A stretch of DNA of 64,000 bases from Naegleria gruberi (GCA_000004985.1 GG738921.1), one strand, 5' to 3'. Shown: positions 2,426 through 59,157, counted from the first letter of the stretch. Made by a program: numbers and translations. Notes: generated by a model from the letters alone, not told the origin.

Positions 2426-4612
2426 ATGGGACAAAATCCTTCTTCACCCTCTCAGAATAATAGCAATCATCTCGTTGCTCATAATCATCATCATCATCAA
2501 CAGCAGCAACAACAACCCCATCATCATCACCATCATCAACATCAACAGTGTGATGTCTTACCGAATTCAACTCATCTAATAGCAGACATTTCAGAGGAAG
2601 AACTTACAACAGATTCAACCTCGGCAACAACACCAACATCATCAACCATGACAGCTTCTCTCTCATCAAATCTTATATCGAGGAGAAGATCCTCTCTCCC
2701 CCATAAATTGAATGACCATAGTACAATGAGTGGAGAACATGATGAAACGAAACGATCCCTTGGTAAAGTATTCAAAAGTGCCACACATTTAAACGCTCAT
2801 GAAGATATTGAGAATTATTCATTGGGAAAACAATTGTGGGAGGTTGAAAAAGCAAGTAATAGTTGTAGTAGTGATGAGAGTCAGCAGCAGCAGCAGCAAC
2901 AAGACTCCCATCACGAGAGTCCAGCAATGATAATATGCCAGACTCCAAGAAATACGAAAATTTAAATATCAAATCGAAACGAAACAATACTCTACCACTA
3001 ACAATAACTGCTAAGGAGAATGAATCACCAGTTCATCGCTCGAATACTCATCCTCATCTTTCCTCTCGCAATTTTCAAGATCACCAACAACAACCTGTAA
3101 CATATTCCAATAATCTCAATACTCCAAATTCTGCCACCTACAAAACTTCCCAGAAATTAATCAAACTAAAGCCATTTTCTACACCAGATTTGAAAAGGAG
3201 TGCACTTTTAAATAGTAGGAACAATCAAGAGGAAGTAAGTGTATTTAATTTGATTTCTAATAGTTTCGAATAATTTCGAATAGATGAATGGAGTAGATAC
3301 AGATACTTTAACACCTACAGTGAGTGACGATATTTCATTTAATTCATCATCTGTCTATTCTCCACCACAACATGCCAATTCTTTCAGAAATAGTGTCCTC
3401 TCAACAACAAGTAGTGCCAGTGGAGGATCCAACAATAATCACAATAATAGTCTCATCAATTCTCTTTTCCCATCTCTTCCGGTTGACAGGACTAAAATGA
3501 CTGATGAGGAATTTACTGTCTACAAGGAGGTTGTCAGTAAACCAGTTTATGAAAAAATTCTGAAAAGTAAACCTCTGACAGCTAAATGTGGATTCAATGA
3601 AGAGTATATGAAAGAGTTTGCTTTTGAACTTTCTGATGAGGAAGAATTGAAAAATACCTATCTCACAACAGACTGGGTTGAAACAGCAAAACTCCTCCAA
3701 AGAACAAGAAGTATCGACGAGACCACTCTCAATCTTGACCCAAAAACTCTACTCGAACCAATAATTAATACAGTTTCTAAACGTGATTCTCTCTCCTCTA
3801 TTGAAGAGGAAGTGAAGAAAATTGTAATGGAAGAACAAGAGGTTCTCAAACAAGAAATCAAAATCAAGCTAATAATTACTGAAATTGCAAATGCACCTAC
3901 AAAAACTCTGAGACAATTTCTTTCTCCTGTTTTGCACAAGATGAATGTTCTACCAGAGATTGGTTGGTTTCACTCTGCTATTCTCGTAGGGAAGTGGAGA
4001 CTTGACTTTAATGATAGTAGTGTAGTAATACCGAGAAAGCTTGTTAGTCAGGCTGCTGTTATTACTACAGACATTGAAACAATTAGTACATTGGAGGATC
4101 TCAATAGAGTGATTGATGGCATGTCGAGATGCATTTGTAAATGGAATAGAAATATAACGTATAAACAAACTGGAGGAGATAGAATTAACACAGGGAACTG
4201 TCAGGATTTTGTGGAAGATTTGTTGGATAGTATTGGAGTTAAAATGAATCTTTCTGGAAGTATGAAGAAATTTGTAAAACGTTTGAGAAAGACAGGAAAG
4301 TGTTCCCTTGTCTTTGAAATGGATAAGAGATTCAGAGAATATTTTGGAATGGAATCTAAACGGGTGAAGTTCAAATCACACGAACAATTAGATTTGTTTG
4401 TGAGAAAATTACTTGACAAGTGTCCAAATTTTGCTCAAGAATTCAATGATGAATGGATACTCTTACAAAGTTTTGATAGAACCTACTGGTTGAAACACAT
4501 TACGTACACTCACATTGAAGAGTATAAACCATGCAAGGTCATTAGAGATAATAAGGGAGTTTCCGATTGTCCATTTCACGAACCCGAGTTCACTAACTTG
4601 CTTAAAGACTAG
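2426..4612 (+). CDS. His/Gln-tract protein with a C-terminal LRAT/H-REV107-like (permuted NlpC/P60 papain-fold) domain. The model carries one frame break.
   Basis: ATG at 2426 gives MGQNPSS, a possible N-myristoylation start. The ORF pieces are 2426-2965, 2878-3234 (different frame) and 3284-4612. A 49-nt GTAAGT...TAG intron (3235-3283) joins the last two in phase 0. The C-terminal domain has GWFHSAILVG about 85 aa upstream of TGNCQDFVEDL, which is the His...NC(E/Q)xF layout of LRAT-family enzymes. Confidence 0.6.
3264..3282. promoter_or_regulatory. Direct pair of TTTCGAATA motifs with 10-nt spacing, inside a 49-nt intron
   Basis: TTTCGAATA at 3264-3272 and 3274-3282. See the motif finding. 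Confidence 0.3.
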
Positions 4613-4753
4613 GCTTTGATATTTGAATCAATTTTGTAAGAAAAATTGAACAAACTCTATTGTGTTTCTTTACATAAAGAATATTAATCACGAAATACTG
4701 TTAATTATTGATCAACATTGTTAATATTATATTATTAAATAGAGAAAGAAAAA

Positions 4754-5609
4754 ATGGAACAAGACAAAACAACCAAAGACACAACAATCAACAATAACAT
4801 TGCAGAGGATGATTTTGAAGACGAGGAGATTCCTTCCGATGAATACTACGACAGAATGTATCAACAAAATGTTCATAAATATTTGAAAGAAAAGGAAGAA
4901 TTTTACAAAAAGCAACAAGACAAGTTAGCTTGTTCCGAACCACAAGAAAAAAAGATTAAAAAGTAAAGCCTTCATAGCTGCATCTCTACTATTCATCATT
5001 ATGAAGAAGGCTAATTACGGACTTGCAAAATGTGATTATACACATTGGATAATTATTTGTACCATTGATTGTGATTGCAAATTAACAGATAATCAAATTA
5101 AAACAGGCTTGGAACAATTCGAGAAAATTTCGATTAGTAAATGTAAAGACATTCCAATGCAAAACGGAAGGAGAAGAATTTTGCTAGATCTTGCCACAGA
5201 ACAGAATTATTATTACTTTTTAAACTTATTTACAAGGAAAAGTAATTTTAGCATGCAAGGCCTAACAATTTATTTGAGTGGACAAGGAATTGCAGACGAT
5301 ACCAATCAAGTTAAAAACCTAGTTGCCTATCTCAAAGGTAAATTGGCAACACTAAAGAGATATCAAGATAATTTTGATTTAGTTGTTTCAGAGCAGAATG
5401 ATGATTGGCAAAATAAGAAGGAAGAAAACAACATTGACGAATTTACTGAACTCTATGAAACTTTGAAAAGCTCTAACTCAAACTATGAATCCAATCTCAA
5501 GAAGGAGGTAAATACACTTCTCCACTCAATGTATCCCTCTGCTTTCACTCCTAACTCAACCACAACTCAAATAACCTGTCTCAAAACTGGAATAACACGA
5601 AAATTCTAA
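4754..5609 (+). CDS. Unknown protein. Two ORFs (70 aa acidic plus 202 aa) are probably one gene split by a frame change.
   Basis: ATG at 4754 follows an A-run. Frame 2 stops at 4964-4966, while frame 3 is open from 4929 through M5001 to 5609. The 38-nt overlap contains an A7 run (4947-4953). The total span is not a multiple of 3. No recognisable domain. Confidence 0.45.
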
Positions 5610-5915
5610 ATGCCTCAAACTCACTCCCATCCACCTTCCACCTCAATAAGTTAAATTATTCTCAACATTAAAGAGATAATTGTAGAATTATTGCTAATCA
5701 CGTTATCGGAAAAATCAACAATTAAAATTTTATTTTAAAAAAACGAAAAAATTGTTGTCCAATAATTTGATTGGTGCGTTGCAAAGACATAACATTACAC
5801 GTAATCACCACATCATCATCATTTGTTTTTCGTTCAAACCAACGAATCTATTTTAAATTGGATTGATTTGTGGACAATCAACAATTATCTTCATCATCAT
5901 TAATTTATTCGGAAA

Positions 5916-8636
5916 ATGTCGAAAAATCCTTCACAACAACAACAACAACCAGAACACACAATTCAACTCAGTGATAAAGTTGATCAGGTTCTTGAGGAGG
6001 TGCTTCCACAGAGAGATCCTTTCGATTCGAGTTTCTTTGATCCTGTTCATTATATAAATCTTCGTTTCCCTAACGAACAAGCCTTGAATGAAGGTCTTGA
6101 ATCATCCATCATAAAAGTCAAGAAGAAGATTCAACGTGTCGATGAAGATATCCTTGTTGCTGTTCGTAAACAAAGCTCTTCTGGTGTTCAGGCAAGGAGA
6201 GACTTGGAGGAAGCAAGAGAAACCATTCAAAGTTTGTTTAAAAAGATTAACGAAATTAAGTCTAAAGCTGAACAATCCGAACAAATGGTACAAAACATCA
6301 CAAAGGATATTAAATCACTTGACTATGGTAAGAGAAATCTTACTGTTACAATGACTACATTGAAGAGACTTCACATGTTGGTGTCGGCTGTGGATAAGTT
6401 AACACTCTACACACAAAAGAAACAATACAAACAAGTTGCGGAATTATTGGAAGCTGTCAATGAGTTGTTGGCTAATTTTGAAAAGTACAAATCTAGCATT
6501 CCTAAAGTTCAAAATTTATTTATGAGATTTGAAAGTGTTAAAAAGTCACTTCGTGATCAATTGTTCCAAGATTTTAAGAGTTTGGACGCTCACAAAAATT
6601 CAGGTAGAGAAAACGTACAACAACTGTTATCAGAGGCTTGTTTGGCTGTGGATGCTCTTGGAGATTCTATTAGAACTGAACTTATTTCTCAATTTGTTAA
6701 AAATAGAGCATTGCATGTCTATGATATGACATTCAGAGAAGGAAAAGAAGAAAGTAAATTGGAAAGAATTGCAGACAGATACAAATGGCTCATGAAAGTT
6801 TTGAAATCCTATCAAGAACAATTTGGAGATATCTTCCCTAGTTTTTGGTCAGTTCCACAAGAAATTACTGTTGAATTCAGTTTAATGACTAGACAAGCTA
6901 TTGTTCAAATGCTCCAAAGAGGAAACAATGTTTCTGGTAAAACTTTATATACAGTAATCTTGTCAACAATCAAGTTTGAACGTGACATGCAAGAGAGATT
7001 TTATGATCCAGACGAATCTGAAATTTTGGTAGATCTTCAACAACAAAAGAGACAACTTGATCAAGAAGAAAAGCTCTTAAAAGAGGCAGGTCAAAAATTA
7101 CAAGAGGGTAGTCCTGAAGCCAATGACAATCTGAAAAAACAATTCAAGATTATGATCAAACGTAGAGAACTTGAAAAGGTTGAAAATGATATTACTAAAA
7201 CATCAACTCTTGATTCCTTATTGAAAGAGGGTGATGGATCAGCTAGTGGCATTAAAGAAGTTGAAAAGGCAAAGAAGAAACCAAAGAATAAGTATAACTT
7301 TATTGGTTTTATTAGTAGTTGTTTCGAGGAACATATGAGTGTATATATTGAATATGAAGAAGAGTCAATGAGAGAAACTCTTTCAAATATTATCCAAAAA
7401 GAAACTTGGGACATGAACAGCGAATACAGCAGTAGTCAAGATTTGTTCATGTACATTGTGGAATCTATGAAGTCATGCAGTGCTTTATCTAAAAAGAAGA
7501 CCCTCTATGACTTGGTTGAGAAGGTATTCAAAAAGTATCTTGCTGAGTATGCTGGCATTCTTACTAACAAATTACCAAAAATTCAATCTATTGCTTCTTT
7601 AAATTCCAACGCTCCAAATAATGCTGCATCAGGAAATTCTAGTGTTTCGTCACCTGTTGCTGGTGGTTCTGGTGCCTCCTCATTCATTCGTAGTTTGGGT
7701 ATGTCAAATATTTTACCAACAGAAACCTTCTCCGATAAGAAGATTAAGCTTACTGATAGAGAAGAAATGGTTGTATTTTACATTATTAATAGTGCTGACT
7801 ACTGTCAACAAAACATTGAAATGGTACAAGATGAATTGAAAGAAACTCTTCAAGAACCATATTGTGACCAAGTTGACCTTTCTGAAGAACAAGGTCAATT
7901 CTACCATGTTTTGAAGAGTGGTATTGAGGTTCTTGTACATAACTTGATGAATGTCATGGAAAAACAATTTTCTGAAATGATTTCTGTTGCATGGGGTAGT
8001 ATGGATACTGTCGGAGATCAATCTCCTTTCATTTCTGTTATCATGCAAACTCTCAAAGATGCTATACCATTCTTGGCTAAGGCACTTCCTATTACTCACT
8101 TTAAATTCTTCTGTGACAATTTTGTATTGTCATTTATGGCAAACTATATCAACAATATTTACAAGTGTAAGAAGATTTCACTAATGGGAGCTCAACAATT
8201 GTTGGTCAACTCTAGGTCACTTGTAAAATATAGTATTAGAGAATTAATTAATTTGGGTGATAATACAAGATTTGATGAGGATGATTTGGCAAGTTTTGCA
8301 AGGAAAGTTGATGGAAAGGCCCAAAAAATTGAATGTATTTTACGTACCTTATCTGCTCCAAATGATTTGATTGCTGAGACTTATATTAGTCTTGCTCCAA
8401 ACGACCATTCTTTACCTGAACTCACAAAGATTTTGGAATTGAAAGAATTACAAAAGAATGAAAAACAACAAATTCTTGAAGGTTATCAAAAAGAATTAAG
8501 GAAGAGACAAGGTGGAGATGCCAAAGATGCACCTCAAGCTAGTGCTATTGGTACAGCAACAAAGAAAATGGAACAAGCAACAAGTGCTATCATGACTTCA
8601 AGTAAGAGCTTTATCAAAAAGTTTACTAAGGATTAA
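5916..8636 (+). CDS. vps53: VPS53, a subunit of the GARP/EARP tethering complex
   Basis: Single 906-aa ORF. The N-terminus FDPVHYINLRFPNEQALNEGLESSIIKVKKKIQRVDEDIL ... KAEQSEQMVQNITKDIKSLDYGKRNLTVTMTTLKRLHML matches the conserved Vps53 N-terminal region nearly motif for motif. Confidence 0.9.
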   Translation: MSKNPSQQQQQPEHTIQLSDKVDQVLEEVLPQRDPFDSSFFDPVHYINLRFPNEQALNEGLESSIIKVKKKIQRVDEDILVAVRKQSSSGVQARRDLEEARETIQSLFKKINEIKSKAEQSEQMVQNITKDIKSLDYGKRNLTVTMTTLKRLHMLVSAVDKLTLYTQKKQYKQVAELLEAVNELLANFEKYKSSIPKVQNLFMRFESVKKSLRDQLFQDFKSLDAHKNSGRENVQQLLSEACLAVDALGDSIRTELISQFVKNRALHVYDMTFREGKEESKLERIADRYKWLMKVLKSYQEQFGDIFPSFWSVPQEITVEFSLMTRQAIVQMLQRGNNVSGKTLYTVILSTIKFERDMQERFYDPDESEILVDLQQQKRQLDQEEKLLKEAGQKLQEGSPEANDNLKKQFKIMIKRRELEKVENDITKTSTLDSLLKEGDGSASGIKEVEKAKKKPKNKYNFIGFISSCFEEHMSVYIEYEEESMRETLSNIIQKETWDMNSEYSSSQDLFMYIVESMKSCSALSKKKTLYDLVEKVFKKYLAEYAGILTNKLPKIQSIASLNSNAPNNAASGNSSVSSPVAGGSGASSFIRSLGMSNILPTETFSDKKIKLTDREEMVVFYIINSADYCQQNIEMVQDELKETLQEPYCDQVDLSEEQGQFYHVLKSGIEVLVHNLMNVMEKQFSEMISVAWGSMDTVGDQSPFISVIMQTLKDAIPFLAKALPITHFKFFCDNFVLSFMANYINNIYKCKKISLMGAQQLLVNSRSLVKYSIRELINLGDNTRFDEDDLASFARKVDGKAQKIECILRTLSAPNDLIAETYISLAPNDHSLPELTKILELKELQKNEKQQILEGYQKELRKRQGGDAKDAPQASAIGTATKKMEQATSAIMTSSKSFIKKFTKD

Positions 8637-8667
8637 ACGTTTCTGTTAATATTATATTACAATTTCT

Positions 8668-9834: not shown

Positions 9835-12125
9835 TCAATAAAAAAAAAATTCTAATACTGTTTCACCATATTCGTTAAGCATTTCCAATTTAAAATCAGA
9901 ATCATTCTTTAACAAATCATCTGCAAAATATAATGCATACTCATCATATTGAGCTACCTCTTTCATGAATGACTTGTCTATTTTGAATGACACATCAATA
10001 TATTCCAATACTAAAACGTTTTGAATGACTGCTTCAATTACAATTTCCTTATCCATCTGTAATGATGAATCAAGAGAAAATAATACGAATCCATCATTTT
10101 GCAATGCAATCTTTACAATTTCTCTATCTTTTTGGAATTTTGGATCAACGTATTCCAATGCTGCTCCATCAATTTCAACCAATTGTAAAACAAAATCTCT
10201 ATCTTTCTTCCAAGATTCGTCTACATATGTCAATGCATGCACATTATTGCCTACTGCTGCTTTGATAATGTCTGGATCATTTTTGAAATCTTCACTCACA
10301 TATTCCAATGCTGTTCCCTTCTGTTTAACTGTTTCTAAAATGAATTTCTTATCATTCCTTATTAATTCATCGGCTTGTTGAATAGATGGTCGAAACTTCT
10401 TAATAACCTCTAATACAAGCTCCTTATCATTTTTATAATAATTTGGAGCTCTTGGTAAGATGGAAGCAGAATATAACTCCTCAATAAAATCATTCTGTGC
10501 AAACTCATTGATTGACTTCACTAGTGTATCTCTTGAAGTTTCGAATATTTCCTCAATGTTTTCAGTGAAATCGTTCTCACAGAAATCTAGATTGGATAGT
10601 GCTATTTGAAGAGCTTCCTCAACATGACTAAATTGTTTCATGATAAATTCTCTATTCCTTATTTTTTTCAATTCAATTCCTAGTTGTTCAATAACTTTTA
10701 AATTATTTTCAATATCATTCTTCAAAGATTCAACACAAGCCTGAAGCGATAATTTAAATCTTTCAACTGTCAATTGAATAATTTGTTCATCATGTTTAAG
10801 AGATGAATCTATTTCGAAATAGGCATTAGCATTCTGTTGAATAGCTGTTTCGATTATTTCTCTATCCTTCTTAAATGTAGCATTATTAACATAGGCAAGA
10901 GACGTTCCATCCTCTCTGACTGCTTCTAATACTATTTCTCTATCTATTTCATTAATATATTTCAATAAATATCCTTTCCTGTTAACAACTTGCATTATGA
11001 ATTGTCTATCCATTCTCAACAATTCATTATTTTCAAATGGATTGCATTTAAAATAAACATCACTAAATGAAAGGCATGCCAATATAATATCTCTATTATG
11101 AGTAAAATTATCATTAATACCTATTGGATATGATTTAAAAAAATCTGATGATAATCCATTTGTCTTGAATATTCTACTCAATATTTCACTTGCATTTGGC
11201 CTCATTTCATAATCGTCATTCAACATGGAAATTAGGATTTTGAAAAATTCAGTCCAACCTTCAATATCATCATCCAAATTAGCTTCCTTAATTATTTGTG
11301 AAATATTATTATTTTCCATGTGAATGATTAAATATTGATATATATCATCTAAATGATGTTGAATATCTAGGGATTCATTTTTTGGAAATATTACATTTAA
11401 TAATGATCTACCTAAACTCCAAATATCACTCCTGAAAGATATTAAACCTTGATTTAGGCATTCAGGTGCAATAAATCCAAAAGTCCCACATATGAAAGAA
11501 GAGGAAGAAGAACTCTCTGATAAATTTGATGGGTTTGAATCAACATCTTGAACTTTTGTAACAGTGACACCAATTCTATCAGAAGGTATTGGACATGCAT
11601 TCTCTCTAACACTTCCCAAATCTCCAATAATTGTCTCTATATGGAGAATATTATCCTCTTTTTTGGTAATTATTGTTTCTTGGAGGAATAAATTGTCTGG
11701 TTTGATATCACAATGAATTAAATTGTTATCATGAAGAGATTTTAGTCCATGACTGGTTTTAATTAGAATTTGAAGTAAATTTCCCAAATAGAGTTTAGGT
11801 TTCAAATTTCTATAATTAGACAAATTAATACCTCTATATTTGGAAATAATAATAGCTTCATTTCCATTCTTTTCAGTGATTTCATAAGTTAATATATTTG
11901 CATTGTGCATTTGTTTAGCTTTCATATTATGTTCAATTTCTCCATAATTATAAATTTAATTTTAACAACATAATGACCATTTAAATTTACATCGGTTCCA
12001 ATATATTTAGATTTGAATACAATAATACCGTCATTTCTTGCAAGTTTTAATGGTTCTTCAATTTGTAGTGCCAAGTGTTGGATGGTGATCTCCGATTTTG
12101 TGTGAATGGTTGAAATTAAACTCAT
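9835..12125 (-). CDS. Protein kinase fused to DUF4116 repeat arrays. There is a frame break inside the kinase N-lobe.
   Basis: The 5' ORF (12125-11922) ends ...NGHYVVKIKF, a VAIK-like lysine. The 696-aa ORF carries HCDIKPDNLFL, IGDLGS (DFG-like) and GTFGFIAPE. It continues with many repeats of the DUF4116 type (DREIVLEAVREDGTSLAYVNNATFKKD, DPDIIKAAVGNNVHALTYVDESWKKD, DREIVKIALQNDGFVLFSLDSSLQMD ...). The two ORFs overlap in different frames at about 11922-11960. Confidence 0.75.
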
Positions 12126-12272
12126 TTCCTCCTCTTATTTTTTTTTAAAGTAATTTTAATTTTTGTAATTCCAAAACGTGATTTAGTTTACGACTATTCG
12201 AAAGATTACAAAATTTACTTCATGAGATTAAAAACAATATATAAATGAGAATTTGTGAAAATTAAGGTTATT

Positions 12273-13346: not shown

Positions 13347-13693
13347 TATTGAATTATTTTTTAACAATTTGAAATAATTTGAGATTCGATTAGAATTAAA
13401 CTATTTAAGATAATTATCTTGGTGGATGTTATATGGAGTTTTGCGCATGTGGAATTATATTGGAATCTATTTGGCATTCAAGAAAAGTGTGTAACGGAGT
13501 TAAATTACAGTGACCATACTTATTGAGTATGAGATACAATGTTCCCATAGCTGAGGATTCGTGTATTAATATATCCATTACTGTTCGTTCTTATTCTCTC
13601 ACTTCTTTTATTAATAAACTACTAGAAATGTACATTTCTATTATTGAACCGATGTGAATGAATAAACAAAGAAATATTTCATAGTGAATGTAT

Positions 13694-13765
13694 TCCCGTG
13701 TAGTCCAATGGCTAGGATACCTGGCTTTCACCCAGGAGGTCCGGGTTCAATTCCCGGCATGGGAG
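13694..13765 (+). tRNA. tRNA-Glu(UUC): tRNA-Glu (anticodon UUC)
   Basis: 72 nt: TCCCGTG TA GTCC AATGGCTA GGAT A CCTGG CTTTCAC CCAGG AGGT CCGGG TTCAATT CCCGG CATGGGA G. The cloverleaf folds with one G-U pair in the acceptor stem, A and B boxes are present, and T4 runs lie downstream. Confidence 0.92.
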
Positions 13766-13840
13766 GATAATTTTACATTTTCAAATGCGGAATAGTTTGG
13801 TTATCATCTCCGGATTTATTTCTGAAACACTGCAAAAAAA

Positions 13841-27469: not shown

Positions 27470-27832
27470 TTTGATCAGGTTTTTATAATAATGTTATCTG
27501 TACAATTTTGTTGTTGTTTAGATCAGCAGCCTATCAAGAGAAACCTCCGAAAATATGTGTGTGGTAATAATTTGGAAGATGATCAAATGATATCTTTTTT
27601 TTTTAATTTTCTCTTTGGATGAACTCACCTGGTAAGAGTTCACTCTTCAAAATTGTGTTGACCCAAGGTTCACCACCTGTTAATAATTATTAAATACTTT
27701 ACAAAAAAAATAAAATATTTAATTTAATAATAATAACAATCAATATCAGAATGAATTTTTTTGCATATTATGATTTGACTTCATGCTGGGAATGTACATT
27801 AGATAATTGTGTTCATCTCCTTCAATTAAAAA

Positions 27833-34230: not shown

Positions 34231-34279
34231 GAACTTCCGTGTTGAAACAAACTTCCACAACAAAAAAACACAAAAAAAA

Positions 34280-35392: not shown

Positions 35393-35636
35393 ACTCTTAT
35401 TTTCTATTTCAATAAATTACAAAATTTGTTTCACATTAGAAATTGTAATAATTTTACATAAAAAATAAGGAAATACTTTTAAATAATAGTAATTTTAGTG
35501 ATCTATACAATATATTTCCTATTACTAAATCAAATCTATCCACAATACTACCTTTCGAACAAACTTTACAATAAAAAATAATTTTTGGAAGAATCTCTTT
35601 ATTAAAGCAGACTAAAAAATAACAAATCAATAAATC

Positions 35637-36026: not shown

Positions 36027-36318
36027 TTTTTTTTGATAGTGAAATTTGATGTCTGACAGAAAATCGAGTCAACTTTCTGACCTAACAGAGCAGATTTATG
36101 TTTCATGATAATTATTAGAGAATGGACAAGGTGTTTTATTGGATTTTTAATTAAATTGTAAATTTTCTTTATTTAATAAAAAATCAAAAATTCAAAAATG
36201 GAAATTTTGAAATTGTAATTTTGATTTGGAATTGCTGATGACAAAGCAATGATGTAACAACATGATCAATCTCTTATCAATTACTACATCCAATTATTGA
36301 AAGTAAACTAATTTTATC

Positions 36319-36348
36319 TTTCGAATAATTTAGTTTACGTTTCGAATA
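36319..36348. promoter_or_regulatory. Direct pair of TTTCGAATA motifs with 21-nt spacing, in a divergent spacer
   Basis: TTTCGAATA at 36319-36327 and 36340-36348, about 165-190 nt upstream of the Arl GTPase ATG. Confidence 0.3.
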
Positions 36349-37880: not shown

Positions 37881-38988
37881 ATGTCTGCTCAATCCATTAG
37901 CTTTTCCAAGTATACAAAATTCGACAATCACTACAGAAAACAATACGTCGAATCGATCAAGACCCAAAATGAAGAGATGAGCAAGAAATTAAATCATCCA
38001 ATGGAATGGTATTGCTCCGAGAAGGTTCATGGTTGTAATTTGAGCTTTATTGTTGATAGAGTAAGGCAATCAGAGTATAAAGTAGAGGTTGCTAATCGTT
38101 CATGTGTTCTTTCACAATCATCAATGAGCTTTTATCCAAAAACAATTGAACAGTTGGAGAAAAAGTTTGAGTGGTGAATTGAATGAACAATTGAAATTGA
38201 AGAGTGTTCAAATTTATGGTGAATTATTTGGTGGATTATTCCCAAATAAGAAACCTTCAGATGCTAAGGCAATTCAAAGTGGAATTCACTATTGTCCACA
38301 TCATGATTTTTATGCTTTTGATGTTCTTCTCGGATTTGAGAATGGAAAACAATCTTGGGCTGTTTTTAACAATGTTGATCCATTGTTGGATGAGTGTGGA
38401 TTCAAAGTGAGAGCTCAACCATTGTTTAAGGGAACTTTGGACGAATGTTTGGAGTTTGATGTTAAATTTAACACTAAATTACCAGAAACTTTCTATCCAG
38501 AAATTGTAAAGGAAAGAAATGCTTCCTGGAAGGATTTGGATAATATTTGTGAAGGTGTTGTCATCAAACCAACCAAGTACAATATCTTTGTGGAAACTGA
38601 AAGAGCTGTAATCAAGAAGAAGAATGAAAAATTCTTGGAAACTGAAGCTAGTGATAAACCACAACAACCAGTGAAAAAGGAAAAGGGTGACTCTGAAGAG
38701 CTAGTTCAGGTATGGAATGAACTCTCACGATACATTACCTCCAATCGTTTGGATAATGTTCTCTCAAAGATTGGAAACCTCACCAAGAGTAACATGTTCC
38801 CAGTTATGAAGGAATTCTCAAATGATGCCCTCGAAGAATTTAAATTAGATTTGGAACGTGGTGCTTTGGAAAATTGTAAACCAGTTTCTTCACTTTCAAG
38901 TGAAGATCAGAAAAAGCTCACTAAAAAGATCAATGATGCTTGTATGGTTTTAATTAAGGAACAATTAAACAAACCATCATCAGAATAA
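37881..38988 (+). CDS. T4 Rnl2 / kinetoplastid REL-type ATP-dependent RNA ligase, with a frame break between motifs I and III
   Basis: Nucleotidyltransferase motifs: I SEKVHGCNLSF, III VQIYGELFGG, IIIa HDFYAFDVL, IV CEGVVIKP, V AVIKKKNEKF. There is a helical C-terminal domain (RYITSNRLDNVLSKIG). ORFs 37881-38177 and 38146-38988 are in different frames, and the span is 1108 nt. Confidence 0.8.
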
Positions 38989-39098
38989 AGTGCAAGTTGA
39001 CTATTTCGAATAAAAGTGGTGTTACTGAAATAATTTACAATTTTTTGTTTTTTGAATACAAATTGCAATTTATTGATTATTTACCATACAATAACCAT

Positions 39099-39624: not shown

Positions 39625-41562
39625 ATGCTCAACACTGAAACCAAGCTAACCTTCCATCATGCAATTTTCGAATTATCGGAAGGCTACTTTTTCATTGATC
39701 AAATTCTTCCATTCTTTTCTTTCAATGATTTGGAAAATTTATTTCTCACCTCCAAACATATTGCCGAGTTGGTGAGCAGACAACATCACATTGATTATTT
39801 AGCTGTTTTTAATGCTGGACTTGCACATTATTCATCATCGGGGAATCGGAATAGATGGATTGATTCAACTCCTCCGAATGAATTTCCATCACTGCTGCAA
39901 TTTGCAAATGGAATAAAAGTGATGATTGAAGCAGAGGGATCATGGCTGATTGAATATATTATTGGTTATTGTCGGAAGGTGAATAAGTTATTCAGTATTT
40001 CATATGATAAATATATTTATAATTGGTCACAAATGGATTTATCACTGATTAAGAATATTGAGGAGTTTGGACTTGTCAGGTTGGACATGTATAATTTTCC
40101 AAAATTTATGCCATTGTTTGAGGGAAAGAAAGTGAAACAGATTAAATTATCTATGGGATATATTTATCAAGATATCTTTGAACAGACTAGACCTGTTTTA
40201 GATAAGATCAATTTCAAGGAATTATATTATTCCATTTCATGGGTTTCTTCATTTAATATACTGAGTGAAGGTCTATCTAAGGAAGATTTAGATTTTAGAA
40301 ACAAGATAAAGATTTCAGTAGGTGATGTCGGGATAGATCAACACCATTATAGTTCGCTGAAAAACATTTCTAAATGTTTCGAGTTTAGTTCAATTACAAT
40401 TGAGAATGCTACAAAAAAAGAGGAGGATTATAGCGACCACAAATTTGACCTATTTTCAAAATCATACACCTTGAAAGCAGCTTTTTTAACCAAAGTACAG
40501 TCACTTGCATTGCCTAAATTCTCAAATACTGAGCCTTCAGCAATAGAAATGCATAATATTGAATTAGCTCTCAATAGTGCAAACATTGATACTTTTCATG
40601 TGCTACACACGACGAAATATTTAACAGAATTGAAATTGCAGGACTGTCACATTGATTTTTCAGATATTGATGCAATTGACTTGAAATTATTGAATAATAT
40701 GGTTTTGAATAGATGTAAATTTGTAAAGAATGGAAAACAATCAAATTTGGAATTTATTGAATGTATTAGTGCACCTAAACTCACAAATCTAACATGTGGT
40801 GACCTGTCGTTAAAATCAATTCCAATGATTTCAAAGAGTATCACCACTTTAAAATTAGGCAAGAATGAAATTGAAAATATCGAATTGGAAAGGTTAGATT
40901 CTATGAAAGGATTGACTAGTTTGGATTTATCAAATAACAAGTTAAATGATTTAAAAAACGTTCAGTCGATTATTGGAAAATTCAAGGACCTGAAATTGAA
41001 TGGAAATCCAATCTTTAAACGTATGATGATTAACAAAAACAAACTAGAATTTATTAACGATGACTGTAAACATGATGTTAAAAGATCGAGTAAGCTAAAC
41101 ACAAAACCAAAATTTTCTGGAACAGATGTGGAAATTATCAAACAATTCAGAATCATTATCTCTCAGAGAGATTATCCACACTGTGTTGAAAGGAAGGATT
41201 TTCTTAAACTAATTTCAAATCCAAAAAAACCAAACAGCTTGGACGAAACAAATGTGATTTTCTGGAACCATCACTACAGCAACAGTCAAACATCATTGTC
41301 AAAAGATGGAAATACCACATTTGTTGGAACTAATTTTACAAGCTTTTGTCAAGTTGCCATCTATCTAAACAATTATTTACAACACGAGTTTTGCTCTAAA
41401 TGGTATTTTTTCGGTATTAATGGAACAGATAATATTGAGCCACTGCATAATAGAGAATTGCTAAATGAGGTGTCCTATATTGTGCATGAATGGTCCTTTG
41501 TTTCCTCTCACATTGAATTTGTTAGAGAATTGAGAAGAAAATATCCTTCGAATTCTTTCTAA
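39625..41562 (+). CDS. F-box-like / leucine-rich-repeat protein (645 aa)
   Basis: Single ORF after an A-run. The N-terminus IDQILPFFSFNDLENLFLTSKHIAELV is F-box-like. LRRs include LTELKLQDCHIDFSDI, LTSLDLSNNKLNDLKNV and LKLNGNPI. Confidence 0.65.
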   Translation: MLNTETKLTFHHAIFELSEGYFFIDQILPFFSFNDLENLFLTSKHIAELVSRQHHIDYLAVFNAGLAHYSSSGNRNRWIDSTPPNEFPSLLQFANGIKVMIEAEGSWLIEYIIGYCRKVNKLFSISYDKYIYNWSQMDLSLIKNIEEFGLVRLDMYNFPKFMPLFEGKKVKQIKLSMGYIYQDIFEQTRPVLDKINFKELYYSISWVSSFNILSEGLSKEDLDFRNKIKISVGDVGIDQHHYSSLKNISKCFEFSSITIENATKKEEDYSDHKFDLFSKSYTLKAAFLTKVQSLALPKFSNTEPSAIEMHNIELALNSANIDTFHVLHTTKYLTELKLQDCHIDFSDIDAIDLKLLNNMVLNRCKFVKNGKQSNLEFIECISAPKLTNLTCGDLSLKSIPMISKSITTLKLGKNEIENIELERLDSMKGLTSLDLSNNKLNDLKNVQSIIGKFKDLKLNGNPIFKRMMINKNKLEFINDDCKHDVKRSSKLNTKPKFSGTDVEIIKQFRIIISQRDYPHCVERKDFLKLISNPKKPNSLDETNVIFWNHHYSNSQTSLSKDGNTTFVGTNFTSFCQVAIYLNNYLQHEFCSKWYFFGINGTDNIEPLHNRELLNEVSYIVHEWSFVSSHIEFVRELRRKYPSNSF

Positions 41563-41601
41563 TAAATTGGATTCTAATATTTTTCAGTTATTTCGAATAA
41601 A

Positions 41602-42484
41602 TTAAACTTTATTATCAGCTCCGTAAGGTTGATTTGGTTGGGCATAATAATTAGGTTGTGGATCCACAACTCCTGGTTGACCATATCCTTGATTAGCAGT
41701 AGGATATGGTTGACCATAACCACCTTGTGGTTGTCCATAGCTTTGATTAGGATTATAAGGTTGAGCTGTTTGATTTGGATTATACGGTTGACCATAACCT
41801 GGTTGACCATAAACCTCTGATGATGGATTGTAATAAGGTTGTTGTTGACCTACTACTGGTGGTTGTGTTTGATTTGAATAATAAGGAGTTGAAGTGTAAC
41901 CACCTGGTTGTTGAACTGCCAAATTTGGTTGCATTTGGCCAACTGTTGTCGTGGTTGATTGAACAGTTGTGGTTGCAACTGGGATTGGAGTGGTGACAGT
42001 TGTGGCAGCTGCCAAATCACTTCTTGACATACCATCTGCGATATTCTTCATGATAATGAACATTCGAATACCTGCAATGACGGACGAAATTCCAGCAATG
42101 ATCAATACAATGCCAATAACACCCAAAACAATTGGAGTGGTAATTCCAGAGCATGATGTGCTGGAATTGGTTGTCACAGCAAGACATGCTATAATGAATA
42201 CAAAGTTTAGTCAAGTTTCGAATAATTTCAAAAATTGATTATTAGAAACAAGATAATGAATTAGTTTTCAACAGATCAACAAGAAACCTACCTGCATACA
42301 ATGCACCAACGGCAATCGCAGCAATTCCTAGAGCAATACCAATCAAGATGGAAACAACTCCTGAGATAATTGTGGCAAGTGGTTTAGTTCTTCTGTTTCC
42401 AATAACTATTCCTCCTCCTACGTGATGATTTACATGATGATGGTGATGATGACCGTGTCGTCCATGGTGATGGTGGTGAGCCAT
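41602..42484 (-). CDS. Two-TM protein with an N-terminal His tract and a Q/P/G/Y-rich C-terminal tail (259 aa, 2 exons)
   Basis: Exons are 42484-42292 / 42188-41602, with a 103-nt GTAGGT...TAG intron in phase 1. The start is MAHHHHHGRHGHHHHHHVNHH. The TM helices are ATIISGVVSILIGIALGIAAIAVGALYA and IVLGVIGIVLIIAGISSVIAGI. The tail has YGQP / NPNQ repeats. Confidence 0.65.
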
Positions 42485-42719
42485 GCGTTGTGTTTCGTTT
42501 CGTTTTTTTTGTTGGAATGTTTATTGGAAACTGGGTGATGTACTTGCCAGGTATGGGTTGAAAGGGAGTTCCAATGTTGTTTCTATTTGATGAGGATCTT
42601 ATTGTAATCATTGATTTGTAATTTCCTCATACTGATCCAGTGTGGATATTCGAAAGTTCAATACTAACTTGGAAAATTAACATAAATTTATAATTTTCTT
42701 AAATATTCCAATTTCATTT

Positions 42720-45513: not shown

Positions 45514-46366
45514 TTTTGTATTTACAATTATTAAATAGTATTATTATGAGTATTAAATATTAAATTATATATTAAATTATATTTAAATAAATTATAGGAT
45601 GATGATGATCGGAATTAATGTATTACAGTATTAACTATTATTATTAATATTCAATATAATATAATACAAAATATGTACAAGAGCCTTTTTTAGCTATATT
45701 GTTGTTGTTGTCTTTTTTCAATAATTATGATATGAAAAATTAAAGATCATGTGATGATGGATAATAAATTGTGTTTCGTTATCTCTTTCGGATGACGATG
45801 ATTCAAAGTCTTGAAATTAATGATGATGAATTAATGAAATTGTAAAGTTATTGAAAAAAACGTTTTTTTCAATTTTTTTTTTGATTTTGGGATAAAAATA
45901 GAATTTTTGAATCGTTTTTAAATTTGAAGTGAGTTTCAAATAGTTGAAGGTGAAGTTGAGAAGATAGGAATCGAATAGTGGAATTAGAGAATTGTTGTTG
46001 ATCATCAGCACAAATGGAAGAGATTAAATAGTATATATGGAAAATTGGATAATTAAGAAACATTGGATTACTGACAACCATTGAAAAGATGAGGAAACAT
46101 TAGTTTACAATGGATTTTTTATTCGAATCCAAAGCTCAATAATCGAGAAATGATTATCCAGTGACTTTTATGAAACTTGATGAAAAAGGACTTTCGTTCG
46201 CTCGAGTTTCAGTAATTTTTATACATTCCATTAAATATTCGCTAAATTACATTCATTTAATATTCAATTTATTGTAAAGTGTTTGTATAATTCAATGAAC
46301 CTTGAAATCAAGTCAAGGAACTTGGAACCTGCATGAAAGAATGAAAAAAAACAAACTTTAAAAAAA

Positions 46367-49817: not shown

Positions 49818-49888
49818 AATAACATGAAATTCGCAAAATTTACAATCCTCATGTAATGTACATTTGAAATAAATTAAGGTTTTAAGAT

Positions 49889-53881: not shown

Positions 53882-54055
53882 TACAACCACTTTCAAACTT
53901 TATCTCCTCATATATTATCTCACTATTATTTTGATTATTAATGATTCAAAAGAAGAAATGAATCAAATTGTTAAAGTTTGTTTATCTTGTGGATAAATAC
54001 TTTATTTATATACATCTCACTAATATTTGAATTCAAAATTGGAATCTCTTTGCAT

Positions 54056-54802: not shown

Positions 54803-55077
54803 ATTTTGTTTTTTTGTTTTGATGAGTAATTAGGAAGGGAGAGAAGGGTGGAATTTATTGAATTTTTGGAGCTTGTCAACTTCATAACTAAATGTGCAAG
54901 TATCTAATAGAGGAAAATGAAATGATGGGAATGATGGACCTATAAAGTAAAATTGTGTATAAATGTTGAATTACTTAAATGGAAATGATCAGATTGTTTG
55001 GAAACAAAGTCTCATTTTGTAACAAAGCAGTTTTTAAATTCACTACAATTTAAGAAAATTTCATATCTGAATGTGAA

Positions 55078-55129
55078 GCGTCGATGGTTTAGTGGTAGAA
55101 TACGGCGGGTTCAATTCCCGGTCGACGCA
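55078..55129 (+). pseudogene. tRNA-Gly-like element lacking the entire anticodon arm (52 nt)
   Basis: GCGTCGA TG GTTTAGTGGTAGAAT AC GGC GGGTTCAATTCCCGG TCGACGC A. The acceptor stem is perfect, and the D-arm with A box and the T-arm with B box are present. About 20 nt (anticodon stem-loop) are missing between GAATAC and GGC. One mismatch closes the T stem, and a T4 run lies about 20 nt downstream. Confidence 0.7.
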
Positions 55130-55331
55130 GCAGAAAGCAATAATTTTGTTCAATTAAAGCTTTTAATGTGAATTGTTTTTACACTACAATCTAGACATAC
55201 CATACTACACGAATCTCAAATACCACATTTTCATTCTTTATATTAGAAAAGATATTAATCAAAGTTAAGACCTCATTTTTTTATTGTGTTTTGTTTTTTA
55301 AAAAATGCAAGTAATGAAAATTTAACAAACT

Positions 55332-56586
55332 TTAATTTTCCTTGTCAATCAAGGCTTGATTCACAGCCATTACCACTCTGTAACGAGCTTGATTCTTGAG
55401 AACCTTTTCAACGGCTTGAGTTACATTATCAAGAGTAGTTAATTCAATTTGTGGCTTAATATTGTGATCAGCAGCAAATTGCAACATTTCCTTCATCAAA
55501 TCGGGAGTGGCACTTGCTGAACCAACAATTGCACGATCTTTGAGGATGAGAGGAAAAGCTGATGCTTTATATATGCCAGAATCAGCTATTTAAATTGTTA
55601 TTTAATTAATTTAAATTAATAATTAATAATTAATAATAATATTAGGAAATTAAAAGTAATTAAAAGTAATTGGAATGCAAAACAAGTTAAATTACTTACG
55701 AAGTCCTAACATGACCATCTTTCCGAATGGTTTCAACATTTGGATAAACTTATCATTATCAATATCAGTGCTAACAGTATTGAGAATCATGTCAAATTTG
55801 CATGAAAGAGATTTTGCATCATTTTCTTCTGTGTGGACAAAGAATTCATCAGCTCCAAAGGATCTGCATTCCTTCTCCTTATTTGCATTTGTGGAAAGGG
55901 CTACAACATGGAATCCCATCTTTTTAGCAAATTGGAGAGCTAAATGACCTAATCCTCCCAATCCCAATACTGCTACTACAAATTCATTTCGTTTCGAATA
56001 AGGACTTTCACGATAGTAGTATAATGGTGAGTAAACTGTGGCTCCAGCACACAACAATGGACTGGCATCGACAGATTTCAACTTGTCTGGAATTGGAAAA
56101 ACAAATCTAGCATCCCAAACAACACCTGTTTGAAAACCTCCTCCAATTGGTGCCTTATCGAAAGGTAAGGTCTTGTCACACAAATTTTCGAAATGATTCT
56201 TACAAGTTGGACATTCGAAACATGAAGTGTAGTGCCATCCCATTCCAACACGATCTGATACCTTAATCTTTGTTTCCTTCTCGACTTGCTCACCAACATG
56301 ACGAACAATTCCAACAATTTCATGACCAGGAATGCAACCAACATTATGCAATGAGTGAATATCTGATTATTTAATAATATTTGATTTGGATAACTACTAT
56401 TACTATTGAAAAATACTAACCTGTATAACAAATACTACTGGCAATTACTTCGACAAAAACCTCCAAAGGACCCAAACTTTTCACTTGTTGCTTGATTGGG
56501 CGAAAGGAGAATTCCTTTCCTTCTTCCTTTTCTGCTACTGCATAACCAGAAACTTGGATTGGTGGATTGATTTCCTTGATAGACAT
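55332..56586 (-). CDS. Zinc-type alcohol dehydrogenase, cinnamyl/mannitol ADH-like (MDR; 360 aa, 3 exons)
   Basis: Exons are 56586-56421 / 56362-55700 / 55585-55332, with introns of 58 and 114 nt in phase. Motifs: CYTDIHSL, GHEIVG, the structural zinc site CFECPTCKNHFENLC, and the NAD(P) motif GLGGLGHLALQFAKKMG. Confidence 0.88.
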
Positions 56587-56983
56587 GGCGATAGATACTT
56601 TTCTTGTGGATTTCTTTTTTTAATTGTTGGATTTAAACTAATGCAGAAGAATTCTTGCTTTTAAATGTTACAAATTTGGAGATTGTACATTCTTGCGACT
56701 TTATACGTGCATTCATACATTCGCACGAGGATGTTATTTATTTAATATCCACCGTTGAAACTTGTTAAATTTCCATACGAAAGAAACACATTATCTGACA
56801 TGTCTTTGTTAAGATTCATCTCATTTATGAAAGTTAGAATGACCTGTGAAAGGAAGACGAGGAGAATGGATATTTTGTGTTGTAATAACACATTTACAGT
56901 TACAATCCAGAATTTAAGGTCCGCATTCGATATCCTTTAGGAGTCGATTAGATCAGCAGCGGTTATTTATCTTTTCAAATTGA

Positions 56984-58089
56984 CCACATCAACAATATCC
57001 TGATTTTATCATACTCTTTCCAGAGTGGATACAAGATTTCGTTATTCGATTCCCTTATGTTTTACCCAGTTTTTTCATTTTCTGCTTTTACATGGTTGCA
57101 TTCGTGTTGGGTTGTTTGAAATTAGAGGAGGCCAATAAGAATACCTGGTATTATAGAAGGTTTATTGCTAAAGAGACAGTTGATAATATTGATAAGGAAA
57201 CTTCCAAAACCAAATTAATATCACCAAATAATGAATTAGAAGAAGAGCAAGTTCAAGAGCCAATTATTGTTAAGGAATCCATGTTACAGAAATTCAAGAA
57301 TAAGTTTAACAATTTCAAAAGTCATGAAATGTTATCATCTCCAATTCCATTGCTGACATGTTTCCTCTACTTGATGTTGGGATCGAAACAAATCTTATTT
57401 GACGAATGTTTACCTCTCTTTTCAGTTACACCAAAAGAGTTGGGAGGATTAGGATTATCTTCATATCATCTTGGTTGTAAGTTTACAATTTTTGTAATTC
57501 TATAGAAATTAACTTTTACTTTCACATTTCAATAATTAACATGCAAATAGTAACTGGTGGATTTTTAGGATTTATCATATTTATGAATCAGGCATTCATC
57601 ACACCACGTGTTATTGCCAAATTCAGTCCATTGATTTGCTATAGGGTGAGTCTTGTTGTGGATATTGCATTCAATGTAATCTTTCCTGAAGTTATTTGGT
57701 TAATGGTTAGTGAACATGATCCAATTTGGAGACATGTATTGTTCTGGTTTGTTTTCGTATTCATTCTCCTATTAAGACAAGTTTCTAATGGGTACAGTTT
57801 CTTGGGAACTTTACTCATTACAAATAACAGTGTAACCCGAAAGAATTCTGGAAAATTGAATGGAACTTCTCAATCATTGGTTTCACTTTCGAGAATGATT
57901 AGTCCGATTGTTGGTGGGGCTATCTTTGCTAGCTCAACAGCTGTCTCTAAATTTCCAATTGACCATCGCACGGTGTTTTATGTTGTTGGTATAATAAGTG
58001 TAATTATGTTTTTCCTTTCATTGATTTTGAAAAAGTCAATCAATAAGCCAAAGGAAGAAGTTAAAGTGAATGAGGTAGCAAAAAAGTAA
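56984..58089 (+). CDS. MFS transporter, C-terminal half only (apparently a 5'-truncated gene or fragment)
   Basis: The frame is open from 56984 with a possible acceptor at 57021-57022. RFPYVLPSFFIFCFYMVAFVLGCLKLEE looks like MFS TM6, followed by the central loop and six more helices. A 74-nt intron (57477-57550) is in phase. Only about 400 nt of non-TM-coding DNA separate it from the divergent ADH gene. Confidence 0.55.
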
Positions 58090-58150
58090 AGTCTGTCAAT
58101 TTTGGAGAAACTCTTCTTTTAGCTAATTTCCAGAATGTTGTAATCGGTAG

Positions 58151-58178
58151 GGAATTTCGAATACATTATTCGAATTCC
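58151..58178. promoter_or_regulatory. Imperfect 28-nt palindrome built from an inverted TTTCGAATA pair
   Basis: GGAATTTCGAATAcatTATTCGAATTCC lies between the MFS stop (58089) and the next ATG (58192). Confidence 0.35.
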
Positions 58179-58191
58179 AACATTAAAAAAA

Positions 58192-59118
58192 ATGGTCAAT
58201 TCTCATTGTTATTCTTTTCGTTGCGAGAATGGAGAAGGTAAATTCATTGAATTGCAGTTATCATTCTCCGAACCTGAGCATCAAATCACTCTAGCTTGTA
58301 CCTACAATTATCATAAATATTTGTTTCGTGAAGAAACTTCATCCGTCATTCATTTCAAATATTACAAGACATGTTTGATGAATAATTCAATTAAATGCAA
58401 AGTTTCTGAGAATTGCATTACCCTGAATGTGAAGGAATGTTCTGATCTGGAAGAAACTGTAAAATTTATTCTTGAGAAACAAGAAAGAAACCCAGAAGAA
58501 AAATTGAATATCATGTTTGAAGTCATGATGCAAGATATTAGAGAATTGAAGGAAAAACTTTGGTTTACAGATAAGGATTTGAACAAATTCTCAGAAAAGT
58601 ATATTTCCAATTGGAATAGTTTAACAAATAACTATTCGAAAAACGTTGACAATCCTTCTATTAGAAAAAACCAAGATTCTAATTATGATGTAAAGAATTA
58701 TGCAGTTAATACTTCAGGTTTTAAGGCTAATGGATATACGAAAGGTTGTCGTGAAGAAAATTTGGAACCTATTGTCATTTACTTTAAACAAAAAGTGGAA
58801 TTCTCAAAGATTGAATTCATTGTGAATGCTCCAGGTAAGAAAGAAGACCCAATTGCAATTTATATCTATGGTGTGTTTAAACCTCAAGGATTTATTAGAA
58901 AAATGGAGGAATCAGGTTCAAGTTCTGGAACTTCTGAACCAAAAGAAGAATTCATCATCATGCCAAAATTGGAGCAACTTGTTAAGGAAGATTGTAAACA
59001 ATCAGATATTGTTTCGGTTAGTTTAAATCTCAGTAATTGCTACGATGGTATTGGAATTGCAGTTAGAAAGGATAAGACTGCCATCTCTTATAGCTTGACT
59101 GATGTCAGAATTTATTAA
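58192..59118 (+). CDS. Unknown protein (308 aa)
   Basis: Single ORF after an A-run, with a coiled segment in the middle. The C-terminal beta-rich region (IVIYFKQKVEFSKIEFIVNAPG ... IAIYIYGVF) may be a jelly-roll or discoidin-like fold; this is unverified. Confidence 0.5.
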   Translation: MVNSHCYSFRCENGEGKFIELQLSFSEPEHQITLACTYNYHKYLFREETSSVIHFKYYKTCLMNNSIKCKVSENCITLNVKECSDLEETVKFILEKQERNPEEKLNIMFEVMMQDIRELKEKLWFTDKDLNKFSEKYISNWNSLTNNYSKNVDNPSIRKNQDSNYDVKNYAVNTSGFKANGYTKGCREENLEPIVIYFKQKVEFSKIEFIVNAPGKKEDPIAIYIYGVFKPQGFIRKMEESGSSSGTSEPKEEFIIMPKLEQLVKEDCKQSDIVSVSLNLSNCYDGIGIAVRKDKTAISYSLTDVRIY

Positions 59119-59157
59119 ATATCCTTTCGAATAGATTTTATTAGCACCAAACTATTC

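Follow-up and report, generated by a model that had tools for sequence, protein, structure and literature searches.

A short asymmetric word at gene boundaries of Naegleria gruberi is over-represented and may be a lineage-specific protein-binding site

Introduction

In budding yeast, the general regulatory factors Reb1 (which recognises TTACCCG), Abf1 and Rap1 bind short, asymmetric and abundant sites. These are found in nucleosome-free spacers, at both ends of genes. The factors act in promoters and, in addition, as barriers to read-through RNA polymerase, as in roadblock termination by Reb1. Here, we describe a 9-mer, TTTCGAATA, with a location pattern that recalls such sites. The word was found in a stretch of 64,000 nucleotides from Naegleria gruberi (GCA_000004985.1 GG738921.1), hereafter called the window. 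N. gruberi is a free-living model amoeba, related to the brain-eating N. fowleri, and has a genome of ~41 Mb. In the original prediction, made from the sequence alone, the word was said to be over-represented in introns and gene-end spacers. It was thought to be either the site of a dimeric DNA-binding factor or a 3'-end element.

Other systems also invite comparison. The tRNA B-box and extra-TFIIIC sites have the consensus GGTTCGANNCC, in which G53 and C61 are invariant. Extra-TFIIIC sites are dispersed intergenic boundary elements. Bacterial uptake sequences, namely uptake signal sequences (USS) and DNA uptake sequences (DUS), are exact 9- to 12-mers. They are over-represented 10 times or more, in both coding and non-coding DNA, and are often paired between convergent genes. 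We know of nothing comparable to these in an amoeba. In the literature that we searched, no promoter, boundary or terminator motif is described for Naegleria. Similarly, we found no publication on TTTCGAATA in the genus, with the proviso that our literature coverage is incomplete. For 3' ends in N. gruberi, a direct-RNA poly(A) study reports AAUAAA, an upstream UGUA and a downstream U-rich element only (PMC11529991). According to the same study, stop codons and poly(A) signals can be dual-purpose, and the median 3' untranslated region (UTR) is 39 nt long. Finally, LUX ARRHYTHMO (LUX) has a GARP-type Myb domain that recognises GAT(A/T)CG and was crystallised on 5'-TATATTCGAA-3' (bioRxiv 10.1101/584854).

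Results

With both strands taken together, exact TTTCGAATA occurs 16 times in the window. All positions and strands given in the original prediction matched exactly. In 100 dinucleotide-preserving shuffles, the expectation was 0.92 copies; the top shuffle had 5 copies and none of the 100 reached 16. Markov models of order 2, 3 and 4 gave expectations of 1.58, 1.78 and 2.32 copies, respectively, and Poisson P values for 16 copies range from 1.6e-11 to 3.8e-9. Once coding trinucleotide repeats are set aside, TTTCGAATA is the most over-represented 9-mer of the window. We conclude that the over-representation is real, statistically robust and ~ten times chance.

The window, with a GC content of ~33%, was split into coding-like and non-coding-like DNA using a map of open reading frames (ORFs) and codon usage that was refined later. 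Non-coding-like DNA makes up ~16-18 kb (25-28% of the window). It carries 10-11 copies of TTTCGAATA versus 0.4-0.7 expected. Coding-like DNA carries 5-6 copies, versus 0.5-1.1 expected. As a separate observation, the ratio of observed to expected CpG is 0.41 in coding-like and 0.64 in non-coding-like DNA. Note that depletion is stronger in coding-like DNA, the reverse of methylation-driven non-coding decay. The depletion agrees with a published remark on Naegleria (PMC12695648).

The palindromic TTCGAA at the centre of the word had been taken to fit a dimeric factor. This did not hold up. TTCGAA alone is barely enriched in the window (42 versus 30 expected), whereas TTTCGAATA is present 16 times versus 1.6 expected. 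Symmetric extensions are not enriched either: there are 5 copies of TTTCGAAA versus 3.5 expected, 6 of ATTCGAAT versus 3.6 and none of TATTCGAATA versus 0.18. The enrichment lies in asymmetric words. Hence, TTTCGAAT occurs 23 times (7 expected), TTCGAATA 22 times (4.6 expected) and the 7-mer TCGAATA 27 times (11 expected). In non-coding DNA the last of these occurs 17 times, versus 4 expected, and 13 of the 15 non-coding TTCGAAT cores are the full W-TTCGAAT-A word. Since the asymmetric 9-mer is enriched and the symmetric extensions of TTCGAA are not, the recognised unit is an asymmetric word of ~9 bp. This argues against a symmetric dimer on a palindrome.

The word is also sharply defined. Pooled single-mismatch variants of TTTCGAATA are enriched only ~1.5-fold, and almost no variant is tolerated at positions 2, 3, 7 and 8. 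Among these variants, TTTCTAATA, which is branch-point-like, occurs 8 times versus 1.9 expected. At position -1, T is avoided (1 of 16 copies), and this is the sole weak feature of the flanks. The consensus is VTTTCGAATA, with the core TCGAATA. Outside the word, the 16 copies are unrelated, with a mean flank identity of 0.296 versus 0.278 expected, and no column beyond positions 1-9 is informative. Because the flanks match random expectation, no longer repeat surrounds TTTCGAATA. The original prediction had named a longer dispersed repeat as the outcome that would speak for an element resembling a MITE (miniature inverted-repeat transposable element). In this window, the check refutes the MITE alternative, and the word behaves as a short cis-element.

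Copies of the word are frequently close together. Three motif pairs fall within 25 nt, spaced 10, 21 and 12 nt apart (permutation P 0.0013), and five exact copies are packed into 1.6 kb at 58.1-59.8 kb (P 0.006). The 21-nt spacing of the direct pair 36319/36340 stood as first reported; its location is the divergent 5' spacer of annotated genes, not an intron. Likewise, the supposed 28-nt palindrome at 58151-58178 is indeed an inverted repeat but an imperfect one. Its arms, of 13 and 12 nt, are offset by 1 nt, and ATTCGAATA (8/9) forms the second of them. Near-matches reported earlier are present, at 35553 (8/9), 45969 (7/9), 46120 on the minus strand (8/9) and 48567 (7/9). Among the matches listed in a search of IMG/VR for the motif-pair pattern, three viral contigs hold TTTCGAATA 4-8 times over 1-6 kb, in what are probably tandem arrays. 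The pair pattern is unspecific, since the viral contigs listed are unrelated AT-rich phage and giant-virus sequences.

A second word, GTAAACT(AA), accompanies the first. It is over-represented in non-coding DNA, where GTAAACTAA occurs 6 times versus 0.19 expected. Five of the 10 non-coding GTAAACT sites have a TCGAATA core no more than 45 nt away (permutation P 0.00025), and the mutual order and orientation of the two words vary. Two copies of GTAAACTAA lie near the 3' end of a confirmed ARF-gene intron. GTAAACT also stands directly before start codons: twice, antisense, before ATG 48774 and, sense, before ATG 59982. Because of these sites, in opposite orientations, GTAAACT is not merely a branch-point word. 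Its role may be that of a promoter or initiator-type element, that of a branch-point word, or both.

We found no common RNA structure across the motif loci, and a common RNA hairpin was rejected for lack of a shared fold. Two loci are hairpin-capable, with the motif in the stem at one and in the loop at the other. Lone copies in convergent spacers are unstructured.

The positions of all copies, and of partner elements, are collected in Table 1. Several gene models that frame them match known proteins. The 274-aa ORF 59158-59982 (-) is 100% identical to the NCBI entry 'predicted protein [Naegleria gruberi]', encoded on a 207-kb scaffold, and four further models of the window are exact matches to annotated proteins of N. 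gruberi NEG-M. At gene ends, TTTCGAATA is present in 3 of the 9 convergent 3' spacers, which span 1,028 nt in all (P 0.017-0.03). Among convergent spacers of <40 nt, two of three carry it. The claimed concentration in gene-end spacers thus holds, with P about 0.02-0.03. So do the short distances between three of these copies and the preceding stop codons (15, 28 and 6 nt). What needs amending is the convergent setting of copy 39004, as its minus-strand partner is an unannotated ORF of 95 aa.

Gene ends are not the only setting. The 5'-proximal loci are 12195, 36319/36340, 42647, 46120, 58155 and 60013/60035. At the last of these, the elements of the module before ATG 59982 are 52, 30 and 12 nt upstream, all in the sense orientation. 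In three tandem spacers, TTTCGAATA is 64-69 nt past the upstream stop. The suggestion of a pure 3'-end or termination element is therefore not supported: no fewer than five loci lie close to a 5' end or within a divergent promoter spacer, and the word occurs on both strands relative to transcription. Introns account for one or two loci and no others. For the direct pair at 3264/3274, the 10-nt spacing is right and the sequence GTAAGT...TAG at 3235-3283 is a frame-consistent 49-nt intron. However, this intron is only putative, because no annotated N. gruberi protein corresponds to either of the two protein models. In coding sequence, four of the five copies are antisense.

Table 1. Positions of the word, its variants and its partner elements in the window
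Feature	Position	Strand	Setting
TTTCGAATA	3264..3272	+	First copy of a tandem pair (10-nt period); within putative 49-nt intron 3235-3283, alternatively 20 nt upstream of ATG 3284
TTTCGAATA	3274..3282	+	Second of tandem pair; ends 1 nt before TAG/ATG junction 3283/3284
TTTCGAATA	10539..10547	+	Coding sequence of kinase/DUF4116 gene (-); antisense
GTAAACTAA partner	12183..12191	-	3 nt beyond copy 12195
TTTCGAATA	12195..12203	-	Tandem spacer; 69 nt after stop 12273, 69 nt before inferred ATG 12125 of kinase gene; sense
Inverted GTAAACTAA 36303-36311 (+) and TTAGTTTAC 36330-36338	36303..36338		Bracket copy 36319
TTTCGAATA	36319..36327	+	Divergent 5' spacer of annotated genes, ATG 36026 (-) and ATG 36512 (+)
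TTTCGAATA	36340..36348	+	Same divergent spacer; 21 nt after copy 36319
TTTCGAATA	39004..39012	+	15 nt after stop of Rnl2-like RNA ligase gene; overlaps AATAAA
TTTCGAATA	41591..41599	+	39-nt convergent spacer; 28 nt after stop 41562, 2 nt before minus-strand stop 41602; overlaps AATAAA
TTTCGAATA	42216..42224	+	Inferred 103-nt intron 42189-42291 of minus-strand gene; antisense
TTTCGAATA	42647..42655	-	Tandem spacer; 64 nt after stop 42720 of annotated F-box gene, 162 nt before ATG 42484; sense
ATTCGAATA variant (8/9)	46120..46128	-	Divergent spacer; GTAAACTAA 11 nt on (46100-46108, -)
TTTCGAATA	55992..56000	+	Coding ORF 55692-56366 (-); antisense; GTAAACT 30 nt downstream at 56031
TTTCGAATA	58155..58163	+	Tandem spacer; 65 nt after stop 58089, 28 nt before ATG 58192 of annotated gene
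ATTCGAATA variant	58167..58175	-	Inverted partner of copy 58155; imperfect hairpin/palindrome
TTTCGAATA	58633..58641	-	Coding sequence of annotated gene 58192-59118; antisense
TTTCGAATA	59125..59133	+	39-nt convergent spacer; 6 nt after stop 59118
TTTCGAATA	59487..59495	-	Coding sequence of F420/NADP-oxidoreductase-like gene 59158-59982 (-); sense
TTTCGAATA	59745..59753	+	Coding sequence of F420/NADP-oxidoreductase-like gene 59158-59982; antisense
Promoter-proximal module of gene 59158-59982	59995..60041	-	TCGAATA cores 60035-60041 and 60013-60019; GTAAACT 59995-60001
GTAAACT(AA) sites	12183-12191(-), 36303-36311(+), 36330-36338(-), 36605/36631(+), 46100-46108(-), 48737/48758(-), 59995-60001(-)		

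Other short words stand out in the spacers. The 10-bp palindrome AATGTACATT is present in three intergenic spacers (13627-13636, 27791-27800 and 49855-49864); one copy precedes ATG 27833 by ~30 nt, and another falls within convergent spacer 49818-49888, which is 72 nt long. AATGTACAT, found 7 times in non-coding DNA versus 0.48 expected, is a further candidate cis-element. GTTTCGTTT occurs 5 times versus 0.21 expected in non-coding-like DNA. A tandem GTTTCGTTTCGTTT at 42492-42505 (+) is directly upstream of the minus-strand ATG 42484.

Some neighbouring genes also deserve comment. An Rfam scan of the window returned two tRNAs and nothing else. One, tRNA-Glu(TTC), is at 13693-13766 (+). The other, at 60179-60265 (-), has a GTA anticodon (Tyr) and an intron of ~14 nt. 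This Rfam match, missed by ARAGORN, is ~200 nt upstream of gene 59158-59982. Both tRNA genes carry canonical B-boxes, GGTTCAATTCC and GGTTCGATTCC. The ORF 38146-38988 (+), upstream of copy 39004, encodes a T4 Rnl2-type RNA ligase, with a nucleotidyltransferase domain and an Rnl2 C-terminal domain. For gene 39625-41562 (+), the annotated protein of 517 aa follows the ORF up to residue 488, then leaves it and terminates near 41365 in a different frame. The uninterrupted ORF encodes 645 aa, and an N. gruberi paralogue of 650 aa can be aligned along it as far as its end. Hence, the stop at 41562 is supported against the annotated model, the 3' end of which is probably a mis-splice. For the F420/NADP-oxidoreductase-like gene 59158-59982 (-), which has two coding copies of TTTCGAATA, the best matches other than the N. 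gruberi entry itself are bacterial (~41-51% identity) and no other Naegleria homologue ranks above them. The gene is a candidate for horizontal transfer, judged by these matches.

Discussion

We tentatively propose that TTTCGAATA is a lineage-specific element to which an abundant DNA-binding factor would bind at gene boundaries, with a promoter role, a boundary or roadblock role, or both. Of the readings considered, this one fits best and seems to us a serious possibility, albeit one that falls short of probable. We infer protein binding because the word is asymmetric and flankless, occurs in spacers at both gene ends and in both orientations, forms pairs at roughly helical spacings and co-occurs with GTAAACT. 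Recognition would take place at the DNA level, given that both orientations relative to transcription are used and that no RNA fold is shared. An abundant, sequence-specific protein would read VTTTCGAATA, with one protein for each asymmetric ~9-bp site. A Myb/GARP-like or three-finger C2H2-type reader would be a fitting candidate. The genes are tightly packed, and such a protein would sit in the very short spacers that separate them. Before start codons, TTTCGAATA and GTAAACT could together contribute to the promoter. In tandem and convergent spacers, downstream of poly(A) sites, the bound protein may be a boundary, or roadblock, to read-through polymerase. In tandem spacers the word is further from the stop codon than the median 3' UTR extends and thus where a roadblock would be useful. 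The cis-element reading put forward in the original prediction is, on this evidence, partly supported.

A broader version of this proposal would have ~ten thousand copies serving as genome-wide boundary punctuation. A single abundant factor would establish promoters jointly with GTAAACT and keep read-through from crossing the gaps of only ~40-250 nt between genes. This system would postdate the divergence from the N. fowleri/N. lovaniensis lineage. Note that the copy number is an extrapolation of the density in the window, 16 copies in 64 kb, to ~41 Mb. We consider the broader version doubtful.

Several observations weigh against a binding site at gene boundaries. All statistics derive from one 64-kb window, with ~9 independent non-coding loci. 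The gap between motif and ATG is variable, from 1 to 184 nt. The 5 coding copies exceed the ~1 expected (P 0.006) and, together with the intronic copies, are unlike a pure promoter or boundary site. Variants that would result from CpG decay are in mild excess (TTTTGAATA 9 versus 5.4 expected, TTTCAAATA 10 versus 5.4), which suggests turnover. The enrichment is missing from our samples of N. fowleri and N. lovaniensis. For each species, the sample was the 23-kb locus that surrounds the Kelch orthologue (46 kb in total); the Kelch-repeat ORF of the window is 48% identical to the proteins of both species. In these loci, there is one copy of TTTCGAATA each versus 0.4-0.6 expected. The N. gruberi density would give 11.6 copies in the 46 kb (P 7e-4). 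In the 4.7 kb of annotated intergenic DNA that the loci contain, TCGAATA is absent. Therefore, across the species available, the element is confined to the N. gruberi lineage and is not an ancient core signal. A recent neutral spread of the word is possible. In further searches, two metagenome scans for a sister species found nothing closer than 36% identity, and in protein searches for relatives all matches came from N. fowleri, N. lovaniensis, bacteria or N. gruberi itself.

Nor is every copy stable between strains. A metagenome contig of 1,550 nt (ENA ERZ929261) is 98.5% identical to window positions 57764-59309, with 19 substitutions and 2 indel events. It represents a second N. gruberi-like strain. 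One of the four copies covered is lost: copy 58155 is disrupted and reads TTTCGATTA. The inverted partner 58167, the coding copy 58633 and copy 59125 are unchanged, the last despite changed bases on either side. Overall, 1 of 27 spacer motif bases has changed versus 3 of 114 other spacer bases, a comparison that is underpowered because the strains are too similar. Separately, a 1-nt insertion in the second strain converts a TAA stop to TGA and destroys the overlapping ATTAAA.

Several of these points favour the view that the word is read by nothing. It would then be a non-functional by-product of lineage-specific mutation or duplication, for instance by local tandem duplication or template switching, and would have reached high frequency in N. 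gruberi by drift. The missing enrichment in the two other species, the copies within coding sequence and introns, the mild excess of CpG-decay variants, and a copy that is polymorphic between near-identical strains, where excess constraint is not measurable, all agree with this. Furthermore, the 3264/3274 pair is an obvious 10-nt tandem duplication. Yet no known process spreads an exact 9-mer without its flanks, which are unrelated here, and the CpG has been kept in a genome where the dinucleotide is depleted (observed/expected 0.41-0.64). A strong spacer bias, and significant co-occurrence with the unrelated GTAAACT, also count against a neutral origin, which we regard as improbable. The same lack of related flanks bears on dispersed repeats. 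MITE fragments, or excision footprints of DNA transposons, would explain a short, exact, multi-copy word with some inverted pairs, and TA-TTC/GAA-TA would be a mariner-type footprint. However, flank identity is at the random level, with no information outside the 9-mer. The symmetric footprint TATTCGAATA is absent (0.18 expected), and three sites show no presence/absence polymorphism in the second strain. A MITE or dispersed repeat is already contradicted in the window, where no sequence is shared beyond the 9-mer, and such an origin is extremely unlikely.

Alternatively, the word might act in RNA. As UUUCGAAUA, it would be a 3'-end or termination signal of the nascent transcript: a fail-safe terminator or cleavage auxiliary behind poly(A) signals and an antisense terminator inside genes. 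The three convergent-spacer copies are suggestive, being 6-28 nt after stops that overlap A(A/U)UAAA; two of the copies contain a second AATAAA. The tandem-spacer copies, 64-69 nt past the upstream stop, are all sense, the coding copies are mostly antisense, and short 3' UTRs with dual-purpose signals would suit such an element. The difficulty is where else the word is found. The pair 36319/36340 and variant 46120 are in divergent 5' spacers, where no gene ends. Two sense copies (3264/3274) are in a putative intron or 5' leader, and two cores before ATG 59982 are promoter-proximal. In addition, 6 of the 9 convergent spacers are without the motif, which is not among the elements reported by the direct-RNA study. 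An RNA 3'-end signal is thus unlikely in our view. A link to splicing is less likely still. Here, copies would be elements of introns, including unannotated short introns in 5' UTRs, and would stand beside branch-point-like GTAAACTAA. Three copies do fall within two inferred introns, and the branch-point-like variant TTTCTAATA is enriched. GTAAACTAA, present twice in a confirmed ARF-gene intron, is also separated from the motif by 3-11 nt at 12195 and 46120, two loci that allow GTAAAT...AG frames. Conversely, of the two inferred introns, one has the motif in sense orientation and the other in antisense. Copies in coding sequence and in 39-nt convergent spacers cannot be intronic. GTAAACT before ATG 59982 has no downstream AG, and the two sites before ATG 48774 are antisense. 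Two confirmed ARF introns are without the motif. Considered as a branch-point or intron signal in itself, the word was rejected: it has no CTAA, its orientation is mixed and it is missing from those two introns.

Were the broader, genome-wide version of the proposal true, this would be the first system resembling general regulatory factors to be described in Heterolobosea. A sharply defined and frequent boundary word would provide a handle to purify the first sequence-specific regulator of the lineage. The word may also aid the design of expression constructs, and may help in asking how genes only 40-250 nt apart stay transcriptionally independent. Its absence from two other Naegleria species would then mean rapid turnover of a genome-wide cis-code. 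If, instead, the word is neutral and recently spread, it is of minor interest.

How, then, does the word compare with known systems? A heat-shock element was rejected: this needs TTCnnGAA, and TTC and GAA abut in the motif without the 2-nt gap. The tRNA B-box and TFIIIC sites have TTCGAAT in common with the word. This candidate was also rejected, since the motif has T and A at the positions of G53 and C61, and T is avoided before the TTT run. With the poly(A) signals of N. gruberi (PMC11529991), the likeness is that three copies are within 30 nt of stops and two overlap AATAAA. Unlike those signals, the motif is not in the published set of elements, is mostly found away from 3' ends and occurs on both strands. 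In the case of LUX, the reverse complement TATTCGAAA holds TATTCG, which agrees with GATTCG at 5 of 6 positions, and a single Myb-type domain reads an asymmetric site of 6-8 bp. However, the conserved G of the LUX site is T in the motif, and LUX is a plant clock factor. The resemblance to GARP/LUX Myb sites is a lead, by sequence likeness only. Bacterial USS and DUS offer an analogy of pattern alone: an exact over-represented word, in coding and non-coding DNA, with pairs in spacers. Those words occur in naturally competent bacteria, where the DNA-uptake machinery reads them.

The sites of yeast general regulatory factors are the closest parallel. The Naegleria word differs from them in sequence, has an excess of coding copies and, within its own genus, is missing as an enriched word in N. 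fowleri and N. lovaniensis; the likeness is one of location pattern alone. That pattern is a short, sharp, asymmetric and frequent word, in the spacers at both gene ends of a compact genome.

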